Below, piece by piece: positions 4,182 to 24,056 of a stretch of 64,000 bases of DNA (positions are counted from its first letter, which is position 1; every line of letters starts with the position of its first letter). A model generated the notes under the pieces. It was given only the letters and a program-made list of their open reading frames with translations, searched no databases and was not told where the DNA came from. This DNA comes from Deltaproteobacteria bacterium. GTDB taxonomy: Bacteria > Myxococcota_A > Polyangia > Polyangiales > JADJMO01. Location of the stretch: assembly GCA_016182965.1 (NCBI GenBank), contig JACPFM010000075.1, forward strand, positions 4,687 through 68,686, in the 5' to 3' direction. Both the position numbers and the translations under genes were made by a program.

Positions 4182-7100
4182 GTGGCGCGCGCCTTGGGAG
4201 GAATCGTCGTGAACGGACCGCTCCGCGCCGCGCGCGCCGCTGCCAGCCAGCTCGTGAACAGCATCGTCGTTCGCGCGTTCGCGCGGGTCACCGGCCGCTC
4301 GGTCACGCCGATCGAGGCGCGCATGTTCGACGACATGTCCAACGACTCGCTGCTCGGGATGGTGCTCATCGATCTCGATGGGACGATCTTGCGGGCGAAC
4401 GCGGCGTTCGAGCGAATGATCGAACGCGACGTGCGCGGCGTTCGCTTCGCGGAGATCACCCACCCCGACGACCTCGAGGAGAACCTCTCGCTGCTGCGCG
4501 ACGTGCTCGCCGGCAGGCGGCGCAGCTACTCGCTCCGCAAGCGCTACCTGCGCGCCGACGGGACGGTGGTGCACGCGCGCACCACCGCGACGTTCGTACA
4601 CGGGCCCGACGATCGACCGCGCTTCGGCGTGGCGATCGTCGAGGACATCACCGACAAGGTCCGCGCCGAGCAGGCGATGCGCGACGAGGCCTCCGACGCG
4701 CGGCGCGCCTTCCGCGACATCGAGCAGCAGATCGCGCAGACCAGGGAGTTCCTCGCGGCGATCATCGATCACCTCCCGATCGCGCTCATCGCCAAGGACG
4801 CGCGCGACCACCGCTTCATCTTGTGGAACCGCGTCAGCGAGGCGCTCTTCGGGCGCTCGGCGGCGGAGGTGCTCGGCAAGACCGACTTCGACTTCTTCCC
4901 GCGCGAGCAGGCAGAGTTCTTCGTCACGAAGGATCGGGAGACGCTCGCCGGCCGCGTCATGGTCGAGATCCCCGAGGAGCCGGCCGACACCGCGGCCGGC
5001 CGGCGGTGGCTGCGCACGCGCAAGGTGCCGATCGCGAACGAGAGCGGCGCGCCCCAGTCGCTCCTCGTCATGTGCGAGGACATCACCGAACGGCGGGCGG
5101 CCGAGCTGGCGCTCCGTGAGAGCCGCGCGCAGATCGAGCTGCTCGCGAAGGTCGCCAGTCAGACCAACAGCGCGGTCATGATCTCCGACCCGGACGGCAC
5201 CATCCGCTGGGTGAACGACGCGTTCATGCGGGTGACCGGCTACGGCGCCGCGGAGCTGCTCGGCCGCCACCCGGCCGAGATCCTCTCCGGGCCCGACGGC
5301 GATCGGCGCGCTGTCGTCGAGATCGAGCGGCAGCTCGCGGAGACCGGCCGCTTCGACGTCGAGTGCCTGCTCTACACGAAGAGCGGACGCTCGTTCTGGG
5401 GCGAGGTCCGCGGCGAGCCCCTGCTCGACGACGCCGGCAACGTCACGAGCGTGGTGTCCGTCCAGACCGACATCACGGCCCGCAAGCGCGGCGAGCAGGA
5501 GCGGCAGCTGCTGCACGAGATCGCCGTCGCCATCGGCGAAGCGGCCGATCTCCCCTCCGCCCTCGGGCTCGTGCTGCGGAAGGTGTGCGACACGACCGGT
5601 TGGGTCATCGGTCAGGCCTGGATGCCCGCCGGGGCCGCCGAGCTCTCCTGCCTCGCCACCTGGTACGCGCGCGACGCCGGGGGCGAGGAGTTCCACGCCG
5701 AGAGCCTGGCCATGCGGTTCACCCGCGGGCGCGGTCTGCCCGGCACCGTCTGGGCGAGCGCCCAGCCGGTCTGGATCCGCGACGCCGCCGCCGAGCCGGG
5801 TTTCCTGCGTCGGAGCCGCGCGATCGACGCGAACCTCCACGCGGCGCTCGCCGTGCCGGTGCTCGCCGGGCCCGAGGTCGTCGCCGTGCTCGAGTTCCTG
5901 ATGCGCGCTGCGCGCGAGGAGGACGAGCGGCTCGTCGAGGTCATCGGCGCCGTCGCGGCGCAGCTCGGCGCCGCGATCCAGCGCAAGCGAGCGGAGGACG
6001 CGCTGCGCGTCAGCCGCGACGAGCTCCGCGCCGCGAACGAGGCGCTGGCCCGCGCCGCGCGCACGAAGGACGACTTCCTCGCCAGCATGAGCCACGAGCT
6101 GCGCACGCCGCTCACCGGGATCCTCAGCCTCTCGGAGGCGCTGCAGGATCGGATCTTCGGCCCGCTCGACGAGCGGCAGCAGCGCGCGCTCCGCACGATC
6201 GAGGAGAGCGGCCGCCACCTCCTCGAGCTGATCAACGACGTGCTCGATCTCTCCAAGACCGAGGCCGGCCGCATGGAGCTGCACCTCGAGCCGTGCGCGC
6301 TCGAGCCGCTGGCGGAGGCGAGCCTCCGCCTCGTGAAGCAGTCGGCCACCGCCAAGCAACAGACGCTCGAGATCGAGGTGCAGCCGAGGGACGTCGTGAC
6401 GCGCGCCGATCCGCGGCGCCTCAAGCAGATCCTGGTGAACCTGCTGTCGAACGCGGTGAAGTTCACGCCGGAGGGCAAGCGCATCGGCGTCGAGGTCGTC
6501 GGCGACCGAGCCGCCGGCGTCGTGCGCTTGACCGTGCGGGACGAGGGCATCGGCATCGCGCCGGAGCACGTCCCGAGGCTGTTCCAGTCCTTCGTGCAGC
6601 TCGACAGCCGCCTGTCGCGCGCGTACTCCGGCACCGGCCTCGGCCTCGCGCTGGTGCGCCGCATGACCGAGCTGCACGGCGGCAGCGTGTCGCTCGAGAG
6701 CGCGCCGGGCGCCGGCAGTCGGTTCACCGTGACGCTGCCCTGGTCGGAGTCGGACGACAGCGACCCGCCTGTGAGCAGCAGAGAGGCCGAGTTGCCCGCG
6801 GCGGACGGCGCGCCGCGAAACGTCGGCCGCCGCGTGCTGCTCGCCGACGACCACGACGTCAATCGCGCCACGATCGGCGCGTACCTCGAGGCGCGCGGAT
6901 ACGTGATCATCTCGGCCCGCGACGGCGCCGAAGCGGTGCGCCTCGCGCGGGACGCGCTGCCGGACATCATCCTCCTCGACGTCCAGATGCCGGTGCTCGA
7001 CGGGCTGCAGGCGATGCGACGCATCCGCGAGGAGCCGCTCACGACGATGCTGCCGATCGTGGTGCTCACCGCGCTGGTGATGCCCGGCGATCGCGAGCGT

Positions 7101-7199
7101 TGCCTGGCGGCCGGCGCCAACGACTACATCGCCAAGCCGGTGCCCCTGCGCACCCTCGTCGCCGCGATCGAGCGGCACCTGCGGAGGGCGACTGCGTGA
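4182..7199 (+). CDS. hybrid sensor histidine kinase/response regulator (multiple PAS, GAF, HisKA, HATPase_c, REC)
   Basis: H-box FLASMSHELRTPLTGI, N-box LVNLLSNAVKFTP, G-boxes DEGIGI and GTGLGLALV, and a receiver domain (LLADDHDVNR...DVQMPVLDG...AKP). Repeated PAS-like segments and a GAF-like segment lie upstream. The start is uncertain (GTG 4182 or the ATG at about 4323). Confidence 0.9.
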   Translation: MARALGGIVVNGPLRAARAAASQLVNSIVVRAFARVTGRSVTPIEARMFDDMSNDSLLGMVLIDLDGTILRANAAFERMIERDVRGVRFAEITHPDDLEENLSLLRDVLAGRRRSYSLRKRYLRADGTVVHARTTATFVHGPDDRPRFGVAIVEDITDKVRAEQAMRDEASDARRAFRDIEQQIAQTREFLAAIIDHLPIALIAKDARDHRFILWNRVSEALFGRSAAEVLGKTDFDFFPREQAEFFVTKDRETLAGRVMVEIPEEPADTAAGRRWLRTRKVPIANESGAPQSLLVMCEDITERRAAELALRESRAQIELLAKVASQTNSAVMISDPDGTIRWVNDAFMRVTGYGAAELLGRHPAEILSGPDGDRRAVVEIERQLAETGRFDVECLLYTKSGRSFWGEVRGEPLLDDAGNVTSVVSVQTDITARKRGEQERQLLHEIAVAIGEAADLPSALGLVLRKVCDTTGWVIGQAWMPAGAAELSCLATWYARDAGGEEFHAESLAMRFTRGRGLPGTVWASAQPVWIRDAAAEPGFLRRSRAIDANLHAALAVPVLAGPEVVAVLEFLMRAAREEDERLVEVIGAVAAQLGAAIQRKRAEDALRVSRDELRAANEALARAARTKDDFLASMSHELRTPLTGILSLSEALQDRIFGPLDERQQRALRTIEESGRHLLELINDVLDLSKTEAGRMELHLEPCALEPLAEASLRLVKQSATAKQQTLEIEVQPRDVVTRADPRRLKQILVNLLSNAVKFTPEGKRIGVEVVGDRAAGVVRLTVRDEGIGIAPEHVPRLFQSFVQLDSRLSRAYSGTGLGLALVRRMTELHGGSVSLESAPGAGSRFTVTLPWSESDDSDPPVSSREAELPAADGAPRNVGRRVLLADDHDVNRATIGAYLEARGYVIISARDGAEAVRLARDALPDIILLDVQMPVLDGLQAMRRIREEPLTTMLPIVVLTALVMPGDRERCLAAGANDYIAKPVPLRTLVAAIERHLRRATA

Positions 7200-8272
7200 A
7201 GAGCGGCGGAACCATCCTGGTCGTCGACGACGACGGACCGACGCGACAGGGCATCGAGGCGCTGCTCCTCGCGGACGATCACCACGTCGAGCACGCCGTC
7301 GACGGCGTCGACGGGCTCGAGAAGGCGCGCGCGCTCCGGCCCGACGTCATCCTGCTCGACATCATGATGCCGCGCCTCGACGGCTTCGAGACCTGCCGCG
7401 CGCTCCGCGCCGACCCCACGCTCGCCCACGTGCCGGTGGTCGTGCTCACCGCGGTCAACGAGCGCGCGTGGATCGCCCGCGCGCTCGACGCCGGCGCCGA
7501 CGAGTTCGCGGCCAAGCCGGTGTCCGGCCCCGAGCTCCGCGCGCGCGTGCGCTCGGCGCTGCGCATCAAGCGCCACCAGGACGCGCTCCAGTCGATGCTG
7601 CGGATGCGCGAGGACCTCGTGCACATGCTGGTGCACGACATGCGAAACCCGCTGGCCATCCTCCACACCTACGTCGACATCCTGCGCGAGGATCTGGCCG
7701 CTCACCCTGCACGGGGAGACCTCGACGAGATCCACCAGGCAGGGCTGCGCCTGCAGCGGCTCGTCGACGAGATGCTCCTCGTCGCCAAGAGCGAGGCCGG
7801 CGGGTTGCCGATCCAGCGCGCCGAGGTCGACGTCGGTGCGCTGCTCGACGGCGCGGTGACCGCGTCGCGCCGGTGGTCGCTCGAGCGCGGAACGCGCTTC
7901 GTGACGCAGGTCGAGGGCCCGCCGTGGACCTTGCAGGTCGACGGCGCGCTGATGACGCGCGTCCTCGAGAACCTGCTCTCCAACGCCGCGAAGTTCTCGC
8001 CGCCTCGCGCGACCATCGTGCTCGGCGCCTCGCGCGGCGAGGCAGGCGCCCGCATCGAGGTCGTCGACGAAGGCCCAGGCGTCGCCGAGGAGCACCGGGC
8101 CCGCATCTTCGATCGCTTCGCGACGGTCGACCTGCAGCGCAAGGGCGTGCGGCAGACCGGCCTCGGGCTCGCGTTCTGCAAGCTGGCCGTGGAGGCGCAC
8201 GGCGGGACGATCCGCGTCGAGCCGGGCGCGCCGAAGGGGTCGGTGTTCGTCGTCGAGCTGCCGGGGGGGTGA
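7196..8272 (+). CDS. response regulator-histidine kinase fusion (REC-HisKA-HATPase_c)
   Basis: GTG at 7196 overlaps the upstream TGA (GTGA). Sequence: ILVVDDDGPTR...LLDIMMPRLDG...AKP, then H-box VHDMRNPLA, LENLLSNAAKFSP, DEGPGV, GLGLAFCK. Only the last 358 codons of track ORF 5363..8272 are credible. Confidence 0.85.
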   Translation: MKSGGTILVVDDDGPTRQGIEALLLADDHHVEHAVDGVDGLEKARALRPDVILLDIMMPRLDGFETCRALRADPTLAHVPVVVLTAVNERAWIARALDAGADEFAAKPVSGPELRARVRSALRIKRHQDALQSMLRMREDLVHMLVHDMRNPLAILHTYVDILREDLAAHPARGDLDEIHQAGLRLQRLVDEMLLVAKSEAGGLPIQRAEVDVGALLDGAVTASRRWSLERGTRFVTQVEGPPWTLQVDGALMTRVLENLLSNAAKFSPPRATIVLGASRGEAGARIEVVDEGPGVAEEHRARIFDRFATVDLQRKGVRQTGLGLAFCKLAVEAHGGTIRVEPGAPKGSVFVVELPGG

Positions 8273-16205: not shown

Positions 16206-16561
16206 GTCGAACCTGATCTCTACGGCGGCCGCCGGCGCGGCGCCACCCGACTCGATCAGATGCCGGATCGTCGCGCGCGCCGCTGCTCGATCGTCTCGGA
16301 GAGAGAGTCGATGTCGCTCTCTTCCGGTATCGCGCGTCTCGTCTCTACGTGAGAGACGGCTGATCACGATGACCGGCACGCGATCGTCGATGGGTGTAGA
16401 GGGCGACGGCCTCGCTGCCGCCCTCCGCCGCGTCGATACGGGAGCCGATGGCCTCGAGGGCGGGCACCGCGGCTCGGCGGACCCGGCTGTCGTCGACGAC
16501 CATCGGCGTCCCACGGGCCCACCACGGGGCCAGCCGGAGAAGGCGCTATCCTGAGCGCGCC

Positions 16562-17467
16562 ATGCGCTTCCGCCCATTCCTCATGGTCGTCGCCGCGCTC
16601 ACCTTCCTCTCGTCATGCTCCGACAAGGACGATGCGCCCGCTGCGCCCGCGGAGCGCCGCTGCGCGGCCGGCGAGAATCTGCAGGCGTGCGGCAAGAACC
16701 TGGTCATCGCTCACCGCGGCGGCGCGAAGCTGTGGCCGGAGGAGTCCCTGCTCGCCTTCCAGAACGCGGTCGCTTCCGGCTCCGACGTGCTCGAGCTCGA
16801 CGTGCACGGGACCAAGGACGGCAAGATCGTCTGCATCCACGACGAGGAGGTCGATCGGACGACCGACGGCACCGGCAAGGTGAAGGAGAAGACGCTCGCC
16901 GAGCTCCAGGCGCTCGATGCGGCGGCGAAGTTCTCGACCGACGGCGGTAAGACGTTCCCCTACAAGGGCACGGGGGTGAAGATCGCCACGCTGGAGGAGG
17001 TGCTGCGCGCGTTCCCGCAGATGCCCGTCAGCATCGAGATCAAGCAGTACACCCCGCCGATCGTCGACGAGGTGATCGCGATCGTCGAGGCCACGGGCAT
17101 GAGCGACAAGGTGCTCATCGCGTCGTTCGACGACGACACGATCCGCGCCGTGCGCGCGAAGCGCCCGAAGCTGCTGACCAGCTTCGCGATGGGCGAGATC
17201 CTCAAGTTCCTCAACCTCGACGAGGACGAGCTCGGCGACTACAAGCCGCCGGCCCCGGTGCTGCAGCCGCCGTACGAGTCGGTGAACCCCGCGCGCATGC
17301 GCATCGCCAACAAGCTCGGCATCCGCATCCACGCGTGGACGGTCGACGACAGCTACGACCAGGAGCGACTGTGGAAGCTCGGCGTGCACGGGATCATGAG
17401 CGACGATCCAGTGCTGCTGAAGAAGGTGACCAAGGACCTCGGCCTCGACGGCGACAAAGGGAGATGA
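16562..17467 (+). CDS. glycerophosphodiester phosphodiesterase family lipoprotein
   Basis: MRFRPFLMVVAALTFLSSCS lipobox. GDPD motifs: IAHRGG, LELDVHGTKDG, IHDEEVDRTTDG, HAWTVDD. Confidence 0.85.
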   Translation: MRFRPFLMVVAALTFLSSCSDKDDAPAAPAERRCAAGENLQACGKNLVIAHRGGAKLWPEESLLAFQNAVASGSDVLELDVHGTKDGKIVCIHDEEVDRTTDGTGKVKEKTLAELQALDAAAKFSTDGGKTFPYKGTGVKIATLEEVLRAFPQMPVSIEIKQYTPPIVDEVIAIVEATGMSDKVLIASFDDDTIRAVRAKRPKLLTSFAMGEILKFLNLDEDELGDYKPPAPVLQPPYESVNPARMRIANKLGIRIHAWTVDDSYDQERLWKLGVHGIMSDDPVLLKKVTKDLGLDGDKGR

Positions 17468-17525: not shown

Positions 17526-18317
17526 TCACCCGCCGCGACGTCGCAGCTCCTCCTGCAATCGGCGCAGCTCGGCCTCCGCGCGCTCGGCGCGCTCGGTCTC
17601 GCGCTGGGCGCGCTCGGTCTCGCGTTCGGCGCGCTCGGTCTCGCGCTCGGCGCGCTCGGTCTCGCGTTGGGCGAGCTCACGCTCTTGCGCGGCGCGCTCC
17701 CAGTCCTCGGGCAATGGGCGTCCGTCGGCGTCGACCCAGCGGAGCCAGGGCGCGTCGACGCCGCGGCGGACGCCGCGCACCACGCCGAGCCAGAGGCCGA
17801 GCGGCTCGCAGAAGACCCGCCCGTGCTCGTCGGGCGCGAGCGGCTCGTAGGAGCGCCGCCCGGCCGCGAGCCGGAACGCATCGAGCCTCGCGGAGAAGGG
17901 GTCGTAGATCGCGTAGAACGGCACGCGCAGCACCCGCGCGTACACGTCCTTCTTCGTGCCGCGGTCGACGGCTTCGGTCGACTCGGAGGTGATCTCGATG
18001 ATCACATCGGGTGTACGCCCGTCCTCCTCCCACACGACCCAGCGTTTGCGCTCCTTGCGGTCGGTCTCGAGCACGACGAACACGTCGGGGGCGCGGAAGT
18101 CGTTCCGGCGGGCCTGCGTCTCGCTGAAGTACAGGCCCATGTTCCCGGCGGCGTAGAAGTCGGTGCGATCGCGCCACGCGTCGATCAACGAGTCGACCAG
18201 CAGGTTCATCTGGTCGCGATGGCGCTGCGTCTCCATGGGCTCACCGTCGTCGCAAGGGAGGTCCTCGCCACGCGGGGGCTTCGGGTGGAACGACGCCGAC
18301 ATGCTTCGAGGATTCAT
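17526..18317 (-). CDS. Uma2 family (DUF820) putative endonuclease with a repeat-encoded coiled-coil tail
   Basis: Core: YFSETQARRNDFRAPDVFVV...WVVWEEDGRTPDVIIEITSEST...D..KKDVYARVLRVPFYAIYDP, typical of Uma2. C-terminal tail: (RETERAE)x5. Confidence 0.75.
   Translation of the reverse strand: MNPRSMSASFHPKPPRGEDLPCDDGEPMETQRHRDQMNLLVDSLIDAWRDRTDFYAAGNMGLYFSETQARRNDFRAPDVFVVLETDRKERKRWVVWEEDGRTPDVIIEITSESTEAVDRGTKKDVYARVLRVPFYAIYDPFSARLDAFRLAAGRRSYEPLAPDEHGRVFCEPLGLWLGVVRGVRRGVDAPWLRWVDADGRPLPEDWERAAQERELAQRETERAERETERAERETERAQRETERAERAEAELRRLQEELRRRGG
17589..17672. repeat. 4 x 21-bp in-frame tandem repeat GCGCTCGGTCTCGCG(Y)T(S)GGC
   Basis: Direct reading. It encodes the RETERAE/Q heptads of the Uma2 tail. 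Confidence 0.85.
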
Positions 18318-18357: not shown

Positions 18358-20907
18358 TCATGCGTGCGTCGTGCCGTCCGTCCGCGGGGCCATTCGCCCG
18401 ATGTTCTCAGCTCCCGACGAGCGGCGGACCTTCGGCTCCGCCGGCGGCCGCCGGCGTGACACCCACGCGAGCGCCGCCGGCAGCAGCGTGATCGCGGCGA
18501 CGAGGCAGGTGATCTCGCCGAGCACCGCGAGCACGCCGAAGAGGAACAGCGCCTGGTTCTGCGCGAGCAGGAGCGACGAGTAGCCGATGACGGTCGTCGC
18601 CGAGCACAGGGCGACGGCGCCGCCGGTCGAGGCCACCGCGGCCGCCGTGTCGCCGTCCTCGCGGAACCGCGACGCCACGTTGACCGCGTAGTCGACGCCG
18701 ATTCCGAAGGTGATCGGGTAGGCGATGAAGTTCGCGAAGTTGACCTTCACGCCGAAGGCGATGCCGAGGGCGGCGAGCCACGCGACGCCGGTGAGCAGCG
18801 AGGCGACGACCAGGCCGCTCGCCCGTCGCGCGCCGAACAGCGCCAACACCACGACCAGGACGCCGCCGAGAGCGGTCGCCGTCGCCCGCACGCCATCGCG
18901 GCGCATCGAGTCGACGATGTCGGCGGAGAGCGGGAGGGACCCGGCGACGCGCGGCGATCCGCTCGAGACCGTCGCCGACGAGACGCCGCGGATGGTGGAG
19001 ACCAACGCGCCGAGCTGCTCGCCTTGCCAGAGCGCGCGCGAGGGCACCGGGTAGACGACCACCGACTGGCCGAGCGTGCCGTCGCGCTCGCGGAGGCCGA
19101 TGGTGAACGTCGCCGGCAGGTTCGCGGCGCTGATCGCCTCGAGCGGGCCGCTGCCGAGGAAGCGCTCGATCGAGGCGCGGTGCTCCTCCGAGAGGTTCGC
19201 GCGGATGTTCGGCGTGAGCATCTTCCGGATGCCTTCGGCGAGCGCGATCTTCTTCTCCTGATCGGCCGGCAGCACGTCGTCGATCGTGCGGATCGAGGCG
19301 ATCATGCCCTGGAGCGGCGGACGCGTCGCGGCGTCTCGCAGCGCCTGGGCCACGCGACGCGCGTCGTCCGGCGCGTCGGTGAGCACCACCATCGGCGTGA
19401 GGTAGGTGCCGAGCAGCGCGTCCATGCGTCGACCCCACAGGCCTTCGCCCGAGGTCCACGTGTCGCGGCGGCGCAGCTTCGAGAAGTCGGTCTCCAGCTG
19501 ATGGGGGCCGATGTGCCGGAGCTCCACCGCCGCGGCGGCGAGCAGGAGCGCGCCCACGGTGACGAACACCCCCGGGCGTGCGGCGACGAGGCGCCCGAGC
19601 CGCTCCATCGCCCCGGTGCGACGCGACGGGCGGACGTGCTCGCCGCGATCGAGCCACAGCGTCAGCGGCGGGATGAGCACGAAGGCGGTGACCCAGGAGA
19701 TCACCATCCCGAGGCCGCCGATGTAGCCGAACTGCTCGAACCCGCGGAAGTCGGTGACGATCAGCGAGGCGTAGGAGACGGACGACGCGAGCGCGGCGGC
19801 CAGCGTCCCCGGTCGCGCGAAGGCGACCGCGGTGGTCAGCGCGTCGGCCGTCGCCACCCCGCGGCGGCGCTCCTCGACGTGCCGCGCCAGCAACATGATG
19901 CCGAAATTGATCCCGTTGCCGACGACGATCGATCCGAGGAACGCGGTGTTCGAGTTCAGCTCGGTCACGCGGAAGGGGGGCAGCGACGCGAGCGCGAACG
20001 CATACACCGTCGCGAGCAGCAGCGGCGCGAGCAGGACGAGGACGCTCCGCCACCAGCGGAAGTAGAGAACGAGCGACGCGATGACCAGGAGGGCGACCAC
20101 CACCGACGACAACGAGAGGTCGGCCATCAGCGCGCTGGTCTCCTCGACGGAGATGGCGACGTCGCCGGTGAACCCGAGGCGCATCCCGGGCGCGTAGCGG
20201 TCGGGCCCGCCGAGCGCCGCGAGATCGGCCTTCACGCGATCGAGCAGCTCCTGGCCCTTTCCGCGGCCGCCCGACGCCTCGGCGACCTCGATCAAGAGGA
20301 GGGTCGTCTTCTGCTCCGCGCTCGAGAACCGCCCGCGCTCGCTGCGTCGTCCGCCGGCGCGCGCCGCGTACTTCTTCTCGAGGTCGGCGAAGTCGAGCGG
20401 CGGCGGTCCCTCGTCCGACAGGAGCGAGCCGGTCTTCTTGGCGACCTCCCAGTCGCGCCGGTCTTCGAGCCGGTCGTGGATGGTCTGCAGGTCCTCGAGA
20501 TCGAGGTAGAGCGGCGCGTGCGACTCGAGGAAGGCGCGCTCCTCGGCGTCGCCGACGCGCACCGCGCGCACCAGCGCCTTCGGGTAGGTGCGCACCCGCG
20601 CGGCGAGATCGTCGAGGAGGCGCTCGCCGGCGGGGAGGTTCTGGGCGCCGCCCACGTCGACGATCACGCCGAGGTGCTGCAGGCCAGGCATGCGCGCCCG
20701 GAGCTCCTCGATGGCGTGCACGCTCGGCGCGTCGCGCGGCAGGAGCTGCTCGAGATCGCTGCGAAGGCTCGCGTACATCCGCGCCGTGCGCACCGTCGCC
20801 GGGATCGCGAGCAGCAGCGCGAGCATCCACAGGAGCCGACCGTGCCGCAGCGTCCAGGCGACGAACGCTCGCACCCGCGCCGAGGACCCTCTCACGGGAC
20901 TCCTCAC
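18358..20907 (-). CDS. MMPL/RND superfamily lipid transporter (HpnN-like)
   Basis: About 849 aa. Two hydrophobic bundles of 5-6 TM helices each follow large soluble loops. GTG at 20907 overlaps the pgpA stop (GTGA). It is the last gene of the lipid operon. Confidence 0.7.
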   Translation of the reverse strand: MRSPVRGSSARVRAFVAWTLRHGRLLWMLALLLAIPATVRTARMYASLRSDLEQLLPRDAPSVHAIEELRARMPGLQHLGVIVDVGGAQNLPAGERLLDDLAARVRTYPKALVRAVRVGDAEERAFLESHAPLYLDLEDLQTIHDRLEDRRDWEVAKKTGSLLSDEGPPPLDFADLEKKYAARAGGRRSERGRFSSAEQKTTLLLIEVAEASGGRGKGQELLDRVKADLAALGGPDRYAPGMRLGFTGDVAISVEETSALMADLSLSSVVVALLVIASLVLYFRWWRSVLVLLAPLLLATVYAFALASLPPFRVTELNSNTAFLGSIVVGNGINFGIMLLARHVEERRRGVATADALTTAVAFARPGTLAAALASSVSYASLIVTDFRGFEQFGYIGGLGMVISWVTAFVLIPPLTLWLDRGEHVRPSRRTGAMERLGRLVAARPGVFVTVGALLLAAAAVELRHIGPHQLETDFSKLRRRDTWTSGEGLWGRRMDALLGTYLTPMVVLTDAPDDARRVAQALRDAATRPPLQGMIASIRTIDDVLPADQEKKIALAEGIRKMLTPNIRANLSEEHRASIERFLGSGPLEAISAANLPATFTIGLRERDGTLGQSVVVYPVPSRALWQGEQLGALVSTIRGVSSATVSSGSPRVAGSLPLSADIVDSMRRDGVRATATALGGVLVVVLALFGARRASGLVVASLLTGVAWLAALGIAFGVKVNFANFIAYPITFGIGVDYAVNVASRFREDGDTAAAVASTGGAVALCSATTVIGYSSLLLAQNQALFLFGVLAVLGEITCLVAAITLLPAALAWVSRRRPPAEPKVRRSSGAENIGRMAPRTDGTTHA

Positions 20908-21368
20908 AGGACGCCCCCCATCCGCAGCGCGAGGACGAGCACGGCGACCCACGCGCCGGCCACGATGTCGTCGAGCACGACGCCGAACCCGCCCGGCAGC
21001 CGCTCGGCCGCCCGCGCCGGCCAGGGCTTCGCCCAGTCGAAGAGACGGAACGCGAGGAACGCGACCAGCACCGCGGGCCAGGTGGGCGGCGTGGCCGCGA
21101 GGGCGACGAGCATTCCCGCGACCTCGTCGATGACGACGTTCTGCGGATCGGTCTTGCCCGATGCGTCCTCGACGATGGTCGCCGCCCAGATCCCGACGAT
21201 CGAGATCAAGAGCGCGGCGCCGAGGAGCGAAAGCGGCCCCTGCGCGCGGAGGAGCAGGTAGACGGGGAAGGCGCCGACGGTCCCGACCGTGCCGGGGGCG
21301 CGCGGCGCGCGACCGCAGCCGAACCACTCGGCGAGCGTGAAAGCGACCTGCGTGCGCGTGGTGCTCAT
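20904..21368 (-). CDS. pgpA: phosphatidylglycerophosphatase A family protein
   Basis: 154 aa: FGCGRAPRAPGTVGTVGAFP...VIDEVAGM...FRLFDWAKPWP...LPGGFGVVLDDIVAG, the canonical PgpA motifs. ATGA overlap with the upstream gene. Confidence 0.8.
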   Translation of the reverse strand: MSTTRTQVAFTLAEWFGCGRAPRAPGTVGTVGAFPVYLLLRAQGPLSLLGAALLISIVGIWAATIVEDASGKTDPQNVVIDEVAGMLVALAATPPTWPAVLVAFLAFRLFDWAKPWPARAAERLPGGFGVVLDDIVAGAWVAVLVLALRMGGVL

Positions 21369-22273
21369 GTCGCCGCCTGCTCCCACCGCGCGGCGACGGA
21401 GCGCACCAGCGCGCGCGCGGCGACGGCGTAGGCGACGCCGAGCACCACGTCGATCACCCAGTGGTGATCGAGGTACACCGCCGCCACGCACATCGACGCG
21501 AAGTAGACGATCGTCGCCGCCCGCATCGCGCGCCCCAGTACCGTGCGTCCCTCGAGCACCACGAGCAGCGGATAGGTCACGTGCAGCGACGGAACGGCGC
21601 CGAACACGTTGGTCGACCGCGCGTACATCGACGCGAAGTACGGGAAGCCGAGGAGCCCGTCGACGCGCGTGAGGTTGGGGCCGGCGCTCGCGGGCTGCAG
21701 CGGATCGACCGCGCAGCCACGCAGGTGGAAGTACCAGGGCGGCGCGGCCGGGATCAGGCGGTAGGTGACGAACCCCGCCACGTTGAGGACGAGGAACATC
21801 CAACCGAACCGCCGGAACGCCGGCTGGTCCTTCTTGAACAGCCACGCCGCGAAGGCGATCGTCGCGAAGATGAACGTGCCGTAGGGAATCGCGAAGTAGA
21901 CGTCGAGCGCCAGGTGCGCGCGTGGCTGCAGCCAATCGTGCACGGTGCGCACCGCGCCGCCCTCCGACCAGCCGAACAGACGTGCCTCGAGCGCGTGCAG
22001 ATCGCAGAGGTGGACGCGATCTGCCGTCAGGGGTGAGGTGATCACGCGCATCGAGTCGTAGACGAGGGCGACGAGCGCGATCGGGTACAGCCCCGAGAGC
22101 AAGCGACGGGTCCACGGCGCCGCGAAGGCGAGCAGCGAAACGACCATGAGGAGCGCCACGTGATCGATGCGCAGCTCGCGGCGCACGAGCATGAAGACCG
22201 CCCACGCGGCGAACGGGAGCGGCGCCCACGCGTGCACGCCGAGTCGCCGCTCGTCTCGCGCCGTCGTCGTCAC
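21365..22273 (-). CDS. PAP2-superfamily membrane protein of the AUR1/inositol-phosphorylceramide-synthase-like type
   Basis: 302 aa, multi-TM. Motifs AVPSLHVTY and VYLDHHWVIDV match the PSLH and HHxxxD signatures of the AUR1-type PAP2 branch. GTGA overlap with the GtrA stop. Confidence 0.6.
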   Translation of the reverse strand: MTTTARDERRLGVHAWAPLPFAAWAVFMLVRRELRIDHVALLMVVSLLAFAAPWTRRLLSGLYPIALVALVYDSMRVITSPLTADRVHLCDLHALEARLFGWSEGGAVRTVHDWLQPRAHLALDVYFAIPYGTFIFATIAFAAWLFKKDQPAFRRFGWMFLVLNVAGFVTYRLIPAAPPWYFHLRGCAVDPLQPASAGPNLTRVDGLLGFPYFASMYARSTNVFGAVPSLHVTYPLLVVLEGRTVLGRAMRAATIVYFASMCVAAVYLDHHWVIDVVLGVAYAVAARALVRSVAARWEQAAT

Positions 22274-22689
22274 GTGGCCTCCGCCCGGAACACCCAGCGG
22301 CGACCCATCTCGAAGTTCCACAGGACACCGACCAGGGTCGCGACGACGAAGCGCGCGGCGAGGTAGCTGCCGAAGACCGGGAGCAGCGCCCGCTCGCCCG
22401 CCGCGTTGAGCGCGACGCTCACCGCCCACACGCTCGCATATCGCGCGGCCTGACCGGAGAGACGACCCTCGACGCCGAAGACCCAGCGCCGGCCGACTCC
22501 GAATGCGATGACGCCTCCGACGGCCGCGCCGAGCGCGGTCGCGAGCACCGGGCCGGCGGCGAGCAGCTCGACGAGCGCGATCATCACAGCCCAGTCGGCG
22601 CCCGTCGCCAGCAGCGATCCGAGCTGGTGCCGACCGAGGCGCGCGAGCCAGTCGGACGCGCCCCGTGGCGCGCTGCCGCCAACGATCAC
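22270..22689 (-). CDS. GtrA family membrane protein
   Basis: 139 aa, 4 TM. The C-terminal LWNFEMGRRWVF is typical of GtrA-like proteins. Confidence 0.7.
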   Translation of the reverse strand: MIVGGSAPRGASDWLARLGRHQLGSLLATGADWAVMIALVELLAAGPVLATALGAAVGGVIAFGVGRRWVFGVEGRLSGQAARYASVWAVSVALNAAGERALLPVFGSYLAARFVVATLVGVLWNFEMGRRWVFRAEAT

Positions 22690-23522
22690 GGAAGTCCCCG
22701 CGCGACGCCTTCGCGGCTCGGGGACGGCGCGGTCTCGGGCTGCACGCGCGCCGGCTGGGACTTCGCGACGGCACGCCCGAGCGCGATCAGCCGAGCGCCC
22801 GCCGAGGTGTGCGCCGCGAGCCCGATGATCACGCAGGCCGCGATCAGCGGCGCGTCGTAGGCGAACGGCACCGTCGGGAAGAGCCGCGCGGCGAACGGCG
22901 CGAGGCCGGCACCCGCTACGAGGTAGACCGCGCGCTCGGCGCGGCGCATCGATCCGCGCGGGACCATGACGCGCGCGCCCTCGGCCTTCGCCGACACGTA
23001 GCTGACCATCACCGCGCCGGAGCCCGCGCCGAGGACGGCGACGAGCGCGGGCAGCGAGCTGCGGAAGTGCACGACGAGCCCGCCGAGGAGCAGCAGCTCC
23101 ATGTACCGATCCGCGGCCGAATCGTAGATCGCGCCGTCGGCGGTCGGGCCGGTGGTGGCGCGGGCGACGACTCCATCGAGCGCGTCTGCCGCCGCCGCGA
23201 TCGCCGCGAACGCGGCGGCGAGGCCGAGCGCGCCGGCGGTCGCCGCGACGCCCGCGAACGCGGCGAGCCCGACGCCGGTCGCGGTGATCGCGTTGGCGGT
23301 GACGCCGATGCGCGCGAGGAAGCGGCCGACCGGTTCGAACGTGGCGTAGGCGGCCTCCATCGGCGTGCGGCCGAGGAACGGCGAGGTCCCGGCGCGCGCG
23401 ACGCGCTCGGAGCGCACCTCGCCGGCGCGCAGCACGCGAAACGCGTACCAGGTCGCGCCGGCGAGCGCGAAGAGGAACAGCGCGAGGCCAGCGGCGATAT
23501 CGATCTGTGCAAGGCTCGGCAC
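22686..23522 (-). CDS. CDP-alcohol phosphatidyltransferase family protein
   Basis: DALDGVVARATTGPTADGAIYDSAADRYME matches the DG(x)2AR(x)8G(x)3D(x)3D signature. Multi-TM. First gene of five overlapping genes. Confidence 0.85.
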   Translation of the reverse strand: MPSLAQIDIAAGLALFLFALAGATWYAFRVLRAGEVRSERVARAGTSPFLGRTPMEAAYATFEPVGRFLARIGVTANAITATGVGLAAFAGVAATAGALGLAAAFAAIAAAADALDGVVARATTGPTADGAIYDSAADRYMELLLLGGLVVHFRSSLPALVAVLGAGSGAVMVSYVSAKAEGARVMVPRGSMRRAERAVYLVAGAGLAPFAARLFPTVPFAYDAPLIAACVIIGLAAHTSAGARLIALGRAVAKSQPARVQPETAPSPSREGVARGLP

Positions 23523-23610
23523 CTCGCGTCGATGTCGTTTCCTTCGGTGGGGCTCACGCGCGAAGCGACTTTTTTCAATGCATGAGCTCGCAGCGCGCGA
23601 CCGCCGTGAT

Positions 23611-23811
23611 CTACAGCTTCGACATCAACGCCGCCCCGAGCTCCGGCTGATCCGTCTTACCGAACCAGTGGCTCCACGTCGCACGCATGAAATCGTGCCC
23701 GGCGACCGTCGCCGTCGCGCGGCCCTGCGTGGCTTTGTCACCATATCCGTTCAGCTCATATGCGTCGCGGAGCATGGTCTTGATCTTGCCGGCGCCCACG
23801 TCGCGCAGCAT
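23611..23811 (-). pseudogene. short ORF, or the 3' part of a frameshifted gene
   Basis: The coding-like tail MLRDVGAGKIKTMLRDAYELNGYGDKATQGRATATVAGHDFMRATWSHWFGKTDQPELGAALMSKL continues upstream only in another frame (SLTEAAAEGSKQAVIDLDADK, around 23825-23900). Locally lower GC. Confidence 0.25.
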
Positions 23812-23960
23812 GACGAAGACGATCTCTTGTCGGCGTCGAGATCGATGACCGCCTGCTTCGACCCTTCGGCGGCAGCTTCGGTGAGCGATGGGCGCTTGTG
23901 GGGCCTCCGTGGTGGGGAGCGCCGGCCGGCCGACGTCGGGTCGGGGGGACGACACCGTCG

Positions 23961-23988
23961 AGTATAGTAAGGAAGCACTTACTTGCAA
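23961..23988 (-). promoter_or_regulatory. near-consensus sigma70-type promoter on the minus strand: TTGCAA, 16-nt spacer, TATACT
   Basis: Direct reading of the AT-richer patch gagtatagtaaggaagcacttacttgcaagc. It points toward the 23611 ORF and the lipid operon. Confidence 0.3.
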
Positions 23989-24056
23989 GCTCGTCTGGCG
24001 CGGCGCACGGCGCGACCGCCGTGCGCTCGGGCGGGTCTGCTCGTACCTTGGGCGGC

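Follow-up and report, generated by a model that had tools for sequence, protein, structure and literature searches.

This locus bears on a question that is still open, how lipids other than LPS, sphingolipids among them, get from the inner membrane of Gram-negative bacteria to the outer one. The transfer of these lipids has been called "a mystery" in a preprint of 2026, and Lpt paralogues have been proposed for the role in Caulobacter (bioRxiv 10.64898/2026.04.12.717747). The locus discussed here offers a different candidate exporter, an RND/MMPL pump that is translationally coupled to lipid-making enzymes. It lies in a window of 64,000 nucleotides, the whole stretch of DNA that was analysed, and the host is a groundwater myxobacterium, with DNA of the locus detected in groundwater metagenome runs only.

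The original prediction was of an operon for synthesis and export of a phosphoinositol lipid, and that interpretation is largely supported, with all of the sequence-based refuting checks proposed for it coming out in its favour. We think it probable that the five genes form a single transcription unit, homologous to BT_1522-1525 of Bacteroides thetaiotaomicron, which serves an inositol-lipid pathway. The element that is new by comparison with the known clusters is the fifth gene, for an HpnN-like RND/MMPL transporter. The operon extends the inositol-lipid pathway of Bacteroides to the myxobacteria and, if the proposal for the fifth gene is true, would provide a proton-driven RND solution to the export of bacterial sphingolipids and phospholipids.

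Organisation of the operon

Five ORFs run on the minus strand from 23522 to 18358 in the order PIP synthase (PIPS), GtrA, AUR1-like PAP2 protein, PgpA and MMPL protein, as had been predicted, and all five Pfam families score above their gathering thresholds. The ATGA or GTGA overlaps said to be at every junction are present at all four as called, each being a 4-nt start/stop overlap (in gene order, reading the minus strand, ccGTGAtc, acGTGAcg, acATGAgc and ctGTGAgg). For the PAP2 gene there is a second in-frame GTG 11 codons downstream of the called start and alignment with homologues begins only at about residue 14-20, so that the overlap at this start is likely but uncertain. Third-codon-position GC tracks the called frame of every one of the five genes. 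The non-coding segment upstream (23523..23990) is a candidate promoter region for the minus strand. It carries the sole sigma-70-like match near the operon, TTGCAA-N16-TATACT (minus strand, 23988-23961), which precedes the start codon of the first gene by about 440 nt; it is a match to consensus only, with one such match found against 0.2 expected.

The best studied relative is the inositol-lipid cluster BT_1522-BT_1526 of B. thetaiotaomicron (Heaver et al. 2022, PMC9246714; Sartorio et al. 2022, PMC8791184), the functions of which have been dissected by knockouts (PMC9246714). An AUR1-like PI-dihydroceramide synthase, a PIP synthase, GtrA and a PgpA-family PIP phosphatase are clustered in both, and the four-enzyme set in our locus is the direct counterpart of the Bacteroides cluster, a point that the original prediction did not make. 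The fifth member in Bacteroides is the inositol-phosphate synthase MIPS, which is often adjacent in Polyangiales relatives but here is on another contig. The two clusters differ in that the order here is PIPS-GtrA-IPCS-PgpA, with subfamily scores below the equivalog cut-offs, and in the HpnN-like MMPL gene, which is translationally coupled at the end of our operon and has no equivalent in BT_1522-1526 as described.

The biosynthetic genes

The first gene (22686..23522, minus strand) encodes a PIP synthase-like CDP-alcohol phosphatidyltransferase of 278 aa (PF01066, 41 bits). Its best NCBIfam models are all for inositol-phosphate transferases, and every one is below cut-off: NF040950 for archaetidylinositol-P synthase (92 bits, cut-off 180), NF052561 for BT1523-type PIPS (74.5 bits, cut-off 350) and NF045883 for actinobacterial PIPS (70 bits, cut-off 170). 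In the same search the PgsA model gave no match and ClsA a weak one of 21 bits, and the top PDB matches are the PIPS proteins of M. kansasii and M. tuberculosis. The CDP-alcohol signature D113xxD116G117xxA120R121...G130xxxD134xxxD138 is complete (D113ALDGVVAR...G130AIYDSAAD138). In the actinobacterial enzymes R155 and R195 bind the phosphate of inositol phosphate (PMC4634129, PMC6506517), and to look for their equivalents we aligned 41 sequences with MAFFT, the M. kansasii PIPS fragment among them. R155 of the M. tuberculosis enzyme (MtPIPS) is matched by R197, and this position is Arg in 40/40 of the others. R244 aligns with MtPIPS R195, a column with Arg in 32 of 40 sequences, the window protein included, and with Arg seemingly shifted by one column in the remainder; this second match is alignment-dependent, as a pairwise HMMER alignment put Ala there instead.

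The protein thus shares with the PIPS of M. tuberculosis (PgsA1) and Renibacterium (PMC4634129, PMC6506517) the CDP-alcohol signature and equivalents of both arginines, but has Ser at the position of K135 and, at the N-terminus, an additional hydrophobic stretch some 45 residues long. The context also differs. The actinobacterial PIPS gene sits among genes for PIM synthesis and is not known to have GtrA, AUR1-like or MMPL neighbours. In the choice between PIP synthase and PgsA or cardiolipin synthase our protein groups with PIPS by NCBIfam scores, PDB matches, signature and arginines, as had been proposed, and from its sequence it appears to be nearest to the PIPS families, though in a separate clade below their equivalog cut-offs. 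Inositol-1-phosphate is the putative acceptor, given the context of a MIPS gene in the genome that is adjacent to the cluster in relatives.

The second gene (22270..22689, minus strand) encodes a small GtrA-family membrane protein of 139 aa (PF04138, 52 bits), which is possibly a flippase or an accessory subunit. Its counterpart BT_1524 has the same place in the B. thetaiotaomicron cluster, and deletion of the Bacteroides gene left the inositol lipids without visible change (PMC9246714). Among 80 related loci, 38 have a GtrA gene that could be detected next to the AUR1-like one.

The third gene (21365..22273, minus strand) encodes a PAP2 protein of 302 aa (PF14378, PAP2_3, 76 bits), which is an AUR1-like phosphoinositol transferase and a candidate inositol-phosphoceramide (IPC) synthase. 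The sole NCBIfam match is to NF052609 PhinosDhcerSyn (phosphoinositol dihydroceramide synthase), at 152 bits for a cut-off of 480 and spanning 273 of the 305 profile positions, and the PDB sequence matches are to AUR1 only. The PSLH and HHxxxD motifs cited earlier are there, at residues 228-231 and as HHWVID at 270-275, and H231, H271 and D275 align with H255, H294 and D298 of AUR1, the catalytic C2/C3 triad, which is invariant in 12 homologues. For the AF2 model (pLDDT 85.6) the top two Foldseek matches are the IPC synthase structures 9vj4 and 9ivc (E 2e-7, TM 0.68-0.72), and the next is PgpB (E 0.1, TM 0.33). The protein is therefore AUR1-like by NCBIfam, by PDB sequence matches and by predicted fold, which speaks against a generic lipid phosphatase. 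It has the PAAPPWY, PSLH and HHxxxD blocks of yeast AUR1 (PDB 9vj3, 9vj4, 9ivc), with the H/H/D residues aligned and a predicted fold at TM of about 0.7, but the identity is 22-24%, the length 302 aa against 401, and a Kei1-like partner is not evident. By likeness to other PAP2 enzymes the active site would face the periplasm.

The fourth gene (20904..21368, minus strand) encodes a PgpA-family phosphatase of 154 aa (PF04608, 137 bits), a candidate PIP phosphatase and the only PgpA in the genome. BT_1525, of the same family, is an experimentally tested PIP phosphatase (PMC9246714), and fusions of AUR1-like protein to PgpA are present in metagenomes. To see which genes occur together we compared 151 genomes of the order, 30 with an AUR1-like gene and 121 without. 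PgpA is found in 20 of the 30 and 10 of the 121, and a PIPS-like gene in 29 of the 30 and 8 of the 121. PgpA is thus present in 30 genomes and absent from 121 of the 151, so that it is not a housekeeping enzyme in this order.

This bears on the view that the operon is for the ordinary phosphatidylglycerol pathway, with PgsA, PgpA and a generic PAP2 lipid phosphatase. PgpA is indeed named for phosphatidylglycerophosphatase A, and it is present here in a single copy, but its distribution in the order does not fit such a role, the PgsA and cardiolipin synthase results and the two PIPS-specific arginines point away from it, the PAP2 protein is AUR1-like and not PgpB-like, and MIPS adjoins the cluster in relatives. 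We regard this view as highly improbable.

The pathway that we infer would start with inositol-1-phosphate made by MIPS, encoded elsewhere in the genome. The CDP-alcohol transferase would combine this with CDP-diacylglycerol to give phosphatidylinositol phosphate, from which the PgpA-like phosphatase would remove a phosphate to give phosphatidylinositol (PI). The AUR1-like enzyme would then take the phosphoinositol head group of PI and pass it to ceramide, the products being inositol-phosphoceramide and diacylglycerol, with the ceramide presumably built from the product of the Spt-like enzyme of the genome. GtrA would be an accessory membrane protein, and the HpnN-like RND/MMPL protein would draw on the proton gradient to carry inositol lipid out of the inner membrane in the direction of the outer one.

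Supply of substrates and the case for ceramide

Neither MIPS nor Spt is encoded in the window, as was said originally, and the search of the genome then proposed found one of each. The MIPS gene is at C217:5854-7167, and MIPS directly adjoins the cluster in 35 of the 80 related loci. The Spt-like gene is at C115:60821-62086, and its product is the best in the genome on the SPT model, with 458 bits (cut-off 640) against 337 for the Kbl protein. The scores for PIPS, IPC synthase, SPT and HpnN (for the last see below) are all well short of the cut-offs, and we read these proteins as members of distant clades of their families and not as equivalogs.

For ceramide as acceptor there is an alternative, that the operon makes and exports only a PI-type glycerolipid, the AUR1-like enzyme using a non-ceramide acceptor or remodelling PI. 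A sister genus has PIPS, GtrA, PgpA and an orthologous MMPL protein (57% identity) together without an AUR1-like gene, which shows a working module that lacks this step; 21 of the 30 genomes with an AUR1-like gene lack the type of Spt found here, and the AUR1-like protein is far under its equivalog cut-off. However the AUR1-like protein resembles IPC synthases alone, both in sequence and in fold, with a complete triad, and the genome does have its best-hit Spt. All eight of the genomes lacking this Spt type that were examined have a different alpha-oxoamine synthase of ambiguous function, and across the 151 genomes the two types are mutually exclusive (121 with this second type and 19 with the Spt type, with zero overlap), a pattern that replacement of one by the other would produce. 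Ceramide phosphoinositol is also reported for a myxobacterium, Myxococcus xanthus, in work cited in PMC9246714; in our search of the literature we found no paper that assigns myxobacterial genes to a ceramide phosphoinositol pathway. We think it unlikely that the product is only a PI-type lipid, and keep ceramide as the putative acceptor.

The MMPL transporter

The last gene (18358..20907, minus strand) encodes an HpnN-like RND/MMPL (HAE3) protein of 849 aa, a putative lipid transporter with two stretches matching PF03176 (130 bits). The top family is TIGR03480 HpnN (183 bits, cut-off 752), the sterol transporter BstA is also among the best models, and the closest solved structure is Burkholderia HpnN (5khn). 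HpnN and BstA are lipid shuttles from the inner to the outer membrane, and our protein has in common with them the HAE3-type RND/MMPL family, a similar size and the threonine pair, T818/T819 of HpnN being kept as T771/T772. It differs in that the D344 position of HpnN, in TM4, is Asn334, and the membrane carboxylate is in TM10 as D739, which is D or E in relatives. Work by Kumar et al. in 2017 is said to have identified D344, T818 and T819 as proton-relay residues of HpnN. The context is also different, as the neighbours here are inositol-lipid genes and not those for hopanoid or sterol synthesis.

That HpnN and BstA are the best models would fit the MMPL protein being a functionally unrelated neighbour, say an exporter of hopanoids, sterols or hydrophobic compounds in general whose gene is at the end of the operon by accident. 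The presence of HpnN-like MMPL proteins in 108 of the 151 genomes would fit this too, and many of these genomes lack inositol genes. So would the 28 of 69 assessable related loci that have no MMPL gene nearby. The synteny argues otherwise. There are 69 related loci that could be assessed for an MMPL gene no more than 8 kb away from the one for the AUR1-like protein, and 41 have one, Labilithrix luteola among them; 34 of these genes share the strand of the AUR1-like gene and start at most 1.5 kb downstream of it, 7 are elsewhere in the locus, and the remaining 28 loci have none nearby. By chance, with a few copies per 8-Mb genome, the estimate is well below 1%. The adjacency extends across families, down to MMPL identities of 32-37%, and in our operon the MMPL gene begins inside the end of the PgpA gene, with 4 nt in common. 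The orthologous MMPL group (at least 46% identity) is found in 20 genomes, 15 with an AUR1-like gene and three more shown to have PI genes. An unrelated role is therefore quite improbable, and the MMPL protein as operon partner, as first suggested, is borne out by the conservation of the link.

The cargo and the direction of transport, including export to the outer membrane, are proposals. As the sister genus has kept the MMPL protein without an AUR1-like gene, the transporter is not tied to sphingolipid, and its cargo may be inositol lipids in general. We suggest tentatively, putting it at somewhat less than an even chance, that in Polyangiales it is a dedicated proton-driven exporter that takes PI and inositol-phosphoceramide out of the inner membrane and to the outer one, by a route separate from the Lpt-like ABC system proposed for Caulobacter, and that the members of this clade, including a paralogue situated some 5 kb away from a different CDP-alcohol transferase gene, each handle envelope lipids of a single head-group class. 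The Caulobacter LptF2/LptG2/LptC2 system (bioRxiv 10.64898/2026.04.12.717747) is similar in having transport genes inside a sphingolipid locus and in being a proposed route of sphingolipid to the outer membrane, but is an Lpt-type ABC transporter, whereas ours would be a proton-driven RND protein. The pump has been conserved in many members of the Polyangiales, and one of these, Labilithrix luteola DSM 27648, is in culture, so that the export hypothesis is open to test.

Operon structure and limits

The five open reading frames run head to tail on the minus strand from 23522 to 18358, in a window of about 70% G+C. They encode a PIPS-like CDP-alcohol transferase (22686-23522; CDP-OH_P_transf, 41 bits), a GtrA protein (22270-22689; GtrA_DPMS_TM, 52 bits), an AUR1-like PAP2 protein (21365-22273; PAP2_3, 76 bits), a PgpA phosphatase (20904-21368; PgpA, 137 bits) and an MMPL transporter (18358-20907; MMPL, 130 bits), all above the Pfam gathering score. 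The reverse complement of the junctions reads ccGTGAtc (22689/22686), acGTGAcg (22273/22270), acATGAgc (21368/21365) and ctGTGAgg (20907/20904), so that each stop overlaps the following start by 4 nt, and in a position-specific GC plot the frame changes at the sites expected from the gene calls. The original prediction of a five-gene overlapping operon is thus confirmed by the overlaps, the GC plot and the Pfam families. The single weak point of the gene calls is the PAP2 start, as there is a second in-frame GTG 11 codons downstream and homologues align from residue 14-20 onward only.

When one genome per species was scanned, at least 597 loci with a relative of the AUR1-like protein were found; the best 80 of these were fetched, and nearly all come from Polyangiaceae, Labilithrix or other Myxococcota. 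The MMPL gene is followed by a Uma2-family gene of nuclease fold (17526-18317, minus strand) and a convergent gene for a GDPD-family phosphodiesterase (16448-17467, plus strand), with lysophosphatidylglycerol phospholipase D as best match. Both are absent from all 80 related loci and were ruled out as operon members. A gene for a Cys-rich protein lies upstream and is divergent. No flanking gene that was tested turned up again in the related loci, and the sole sigma-70-like consensus match lies about 440 nt ahead of the first gene, which argues that the operon comprises these five genes. RNA runs were sought for expression, and the sequence is present only in groundwater metagenome DNA runs.

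Predicted enzymes of inositol lipid synthesis

With regard to the transferase, the top NCBIfam models all act on inositol phosphate, and are archaetidylinositol-phosphate synthase (92 bits), the BT1523-type phosphatidylinositol phosphate (PIP) synthase (74.5 bits) and the actinobacterial PIP synthase (70 bits); the cardiolipin synthase model scored 21 bits and there was no match to PgsA in NCBIfam. All of these scores are below the curated cut-offs, so that the protein belongs to a separate clade of PIPS-like enzymes. Searched against all solved structures, it matched PIP synthases from mycobacteria and Renibacterium and inositol-phosphate transferases from archaea. It has every residue of the catalytic signature (D113xxDGxxAR...G130xxxD134xxxD138). 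R155 and R195 of MtPIPS bind the phosphate of inositol phosphate (PMC4634129), and in a MAFFT alignment of 41 sequences R197 and R244 of the transferase occupy these columns; a pairwise alignment to the PIPS structure set the second arginine differently, and we have taken the MAFFT alignment as right.

The only NCBIfam match of the PAP2 protein is phosphoinositol dihydroceramide synthase (152 bits, cut-off 480), with almost the whole profile covered, and the only match among PDB sequences is yeast AUR1 (E 2e-13). The PAAPPWY, PSLH and HHxxxD blocks align with AUR1, with H231/H271/D275 on AUR1 H255/H294/D298. An AlphaFold2 model built from 12 homologues (pLDDT 85.6) gave two inositol-phosphoceramide (IPC) synthase structures as the top Foldseek matches (E 2e-7, TM 0.68-0.72), generic lipid phosphatases following at six orders of magnitude weaker. 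The PAP2 protein had been predicted to be of AUR1 type, and this is borne out by NCBIfam, PDB and Foldseek: it does not cluster with generic phosphatases.

In Bacteroides thetaiotaomicron, knockouts have identified BT_1526 as the inositol-phosphate synthase (MIPS), BT_1523 as the PIP synthase, the PgpA-family BT_1525 as the PIP phosphatase and the AUR1-like BT_1522 as the phosphatidylinositol (PI)-dihydroceramide synthase, and deletion of the GtrA protein BT_1524 left inositol lipids unaltered (PMC9246714). The window operon has all four non-MIPS families of that cluster, and as an enzyme set it belongs, distantly, to a system already defined by experiment. Ceramide phosphoinositol has been reported in Myxococcus xanthus (cited in PMC9246714).

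The window is on contig C143 of a 9.6 Mb assembly of 226 contigs that is 91% complete, with Polyangiaceae and Labilithrix as closest named relatives. This genome has one MIPS gene (C217:5854-7167) and a serine palmitoyltransferase (Spt)-like gene (C115:60821-62086). Of the 13 genes of class I/II aminotransferase fold, the latter has the top score on the serine palmitoyltransferase model (458 bits; Kbl and BioF of the same genome reach 337 and 211). PIPS, GtrA, the AUR1-like gene, PgpA and MIPS are each present in single copy. The original prediction had named as contrary findings a transferase of PgsA or cardiolipin synthase type, a generic lipid phosphatase and a genome lacking MIPS; subtyping and the genome search found none of these three.

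A further CDP-alcohol transferase, with inositol-phosphate transferases as a weak best match, is found in the same genome near a protein that resembles an aminotransferase with a nucleotidyltransferase fused to it, the latter half being recognised by eye. The pair (C43:4881-5807 and C43:7695-8648) recalls the “alternative” inositol-lipid cluster of Bacteroides vulgatus, itself putative.

Conservation and distribution in the order

In tblastn searches of the best 80 loci with the window proteins, the recurrent arrangement was MIPS, PIPS, GtrA, AUR1-like, PgpA and MMPL, and all six genes are present in 16 loci. In the cultured Labilithrix luteola DSM 27648 (L068) they are contiguous, in the order MIPS-PIPS-GtrA-IPCS-PgpA-MMPL. 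MMPL could be assessed in the 69 loci whose sequence extends at least 3 kb past the AUR1-like gene on its downstream side: in 34 of these a same-strand MMPL gene starts within 1.5 kb downstream of the AUR1-like gene, and a further 7 have MMPL elsewhere in the locus. A genome of roughly 8 Mb holds 1-4 HpnN-like genes, from which we estimate the probability of chance adjacency to be well under 1%.

Counts were made over 151 genomes of the order and are not independent of phylogeny. The AUR1-like gene is in 30 of these genomes and a PIPS-like gene in 37, comprising 29 of the 30 with the AUR1-like gene and 8 of the 121 without. PgpA is also in 30 genomes (20/30 with and 10/121 without the AUR1-like gene), a distribution which indicates that it is not a housekeeping gene in this order and accompanies the inositol genes. 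A further link between the two genes comes from metagenomic proteins (P0014, P0023, P0029, P0031, P0037, P0041 and P0069; 423-457 aa) in which an AUR1-like PAP2_3 domain is fused to PgpA.

Between MIPS/PIPS and GtrA/AUR1-like, many of the related clusters have two further genes that the window lacks. The two (L016:4213-5337 and L016:~6508-7878) encode a Gfo/Idh/MocA oxidoreductase with distant resemblance to inositol 2-dehydrogenase and a class-III aminotransferase, and both are also in loci L110 and L112. Together they might make an amino-inositol head group; neither has an orthologue in the window's genome.

The acceptor was considered from the distribution of Spt. The Spt type of the window's genome is present in 9 of the 30 genomes with the AUR1-like gene, and eight other carriers that we examined have a second alpha-oxoamine synthase that shares about 38% identity with this Spt and 30-34% with Kbl. 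In the 151 genomes the second type occurs in 121 and the Spt type in 19 with zero overlap, and such perfect mutual exclusion fits functional replacement. NCBIfam is ambiguous on the second type (bioF 335 bits, SPT 331), and in one genome (L109:9022-10251) its neighbours, identified by eye from translations, look like two ketosynthase genes with genes for an acyl carrier protein and a methyltransferase. It could serve as an alternative long-chain-base synthase. Given the 9 of 30 carriers and a near-universal, mutually exclusive second type, Spt co-occurrence was set aside for judging whether ceramide is the acceptor. A look beside Spt for ceramide synthase or reductase genes gave only a TPR-like membrane protein in the window's genome and a short-chain dehydrogenase in a relative (G102). 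Ceramide is the probable acceptor in the window's genome.

LpxC was found in 27 of the 151 genomes, 124 being without it. Sorangium-type envelopes are not known to contain LPS, which fits this low count. Replacement of LPS by inositol lipids was set aside as an explanation, as LpxC presence tracks family lines and not the inositol cluster. LpxC was not found in the window's 91%-complete assembly; all 8 of 8 sampled members of the family have it, and its absence is probably a gap.

The transporter and its possible cargo

The best families for the MMPL protein are HpnN (183 bits) and then the sterol transporter BstA (152 bits), both below cut-off, and among solved structures Burkholderia HpnN matches best. 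In HpnN, Asp344 in TM4 and T818/T819 are reported to be the proton-relay residues. The threonine pair is retained as T771/T772. However the window protein has Asn334 (GNGINFG) in place of Asp344, and its membrane carboxylate sits in TM10 (D739, GIGVDYAVN) rather than TM4. The pattern at 334, 739 and 771-772 is kept in relatives, and from its sequence the protein looks like a functional proton-driven pump with the relay positioned otherwise than in HpnN.

The orthologous group, defined by at least 46% identity, is in 20 of the 151 genomes, 15 of them with the AUR1-like gene. Three genomes of a sister genus (G030, G049 and G057) have the orthologous MMPL and no AUR1-like gene anywhere. The loci fetched from two of the three, G049 (L110, G049:C6) and G030 (L112, G030:C408), have PIPS, GtrA, PgpA and MMPL clustered with the oxidoreductase and aminotransferase, the layout being oxidoreductase-PIPS-GtrA-aminotransferase, a divergent orthologous MMPL, and PgpA. 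These are a PI-only version of the module, and MMPL thus follows the PI-making module and not the sphingolipid step alone. The predicted link of MMPL to the inositol-lipid operon is upheld by synteny, but sphingolipid as its cargo has to be corrected, and the protein may carry PI-type lipids, inositol-phosphoceramide or the two together.

Enzymes of the CDP-alcohol transferase and PgpA families have cytoplasmic active sites, and PAP2 enzymes have theirs on the outside. We propose that PIP, and then PI, would be made on the inner leaflet and PI flipped, with GtrA as a speculative candidate flippase, and that phosphoinositol would be moved to ceramide at the periplasmic face. Caulobacter completes ceramide in the periplasm (PMC11087976). 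The MMPL protein would then extract the lipid and hand it toward the outer membrane, by analogy with HpnN and hopanoids.

In the literature searched no paper describes an HpnN-like RND transporter coupled, as a conserved feature, to such an operon in Polyangiales, and the sole system so far proposed to transport sphingolipids in bacteria is of another kind.

The genome has a second HpnN-like MMPL gene (C70:21224-23785), its product 34% identical and sharing the GNGINFG and GIGVDY motifs. About 5 kb from it, recognised by eye, are genes for a protein with CDP-alcohol transferase motif and a glycosyltransferase-like protein (C70:15598-16500 and C70:14145-15272), and this neighbourhood hints that the MMPL clade is tied to head-group synthesis more generally.
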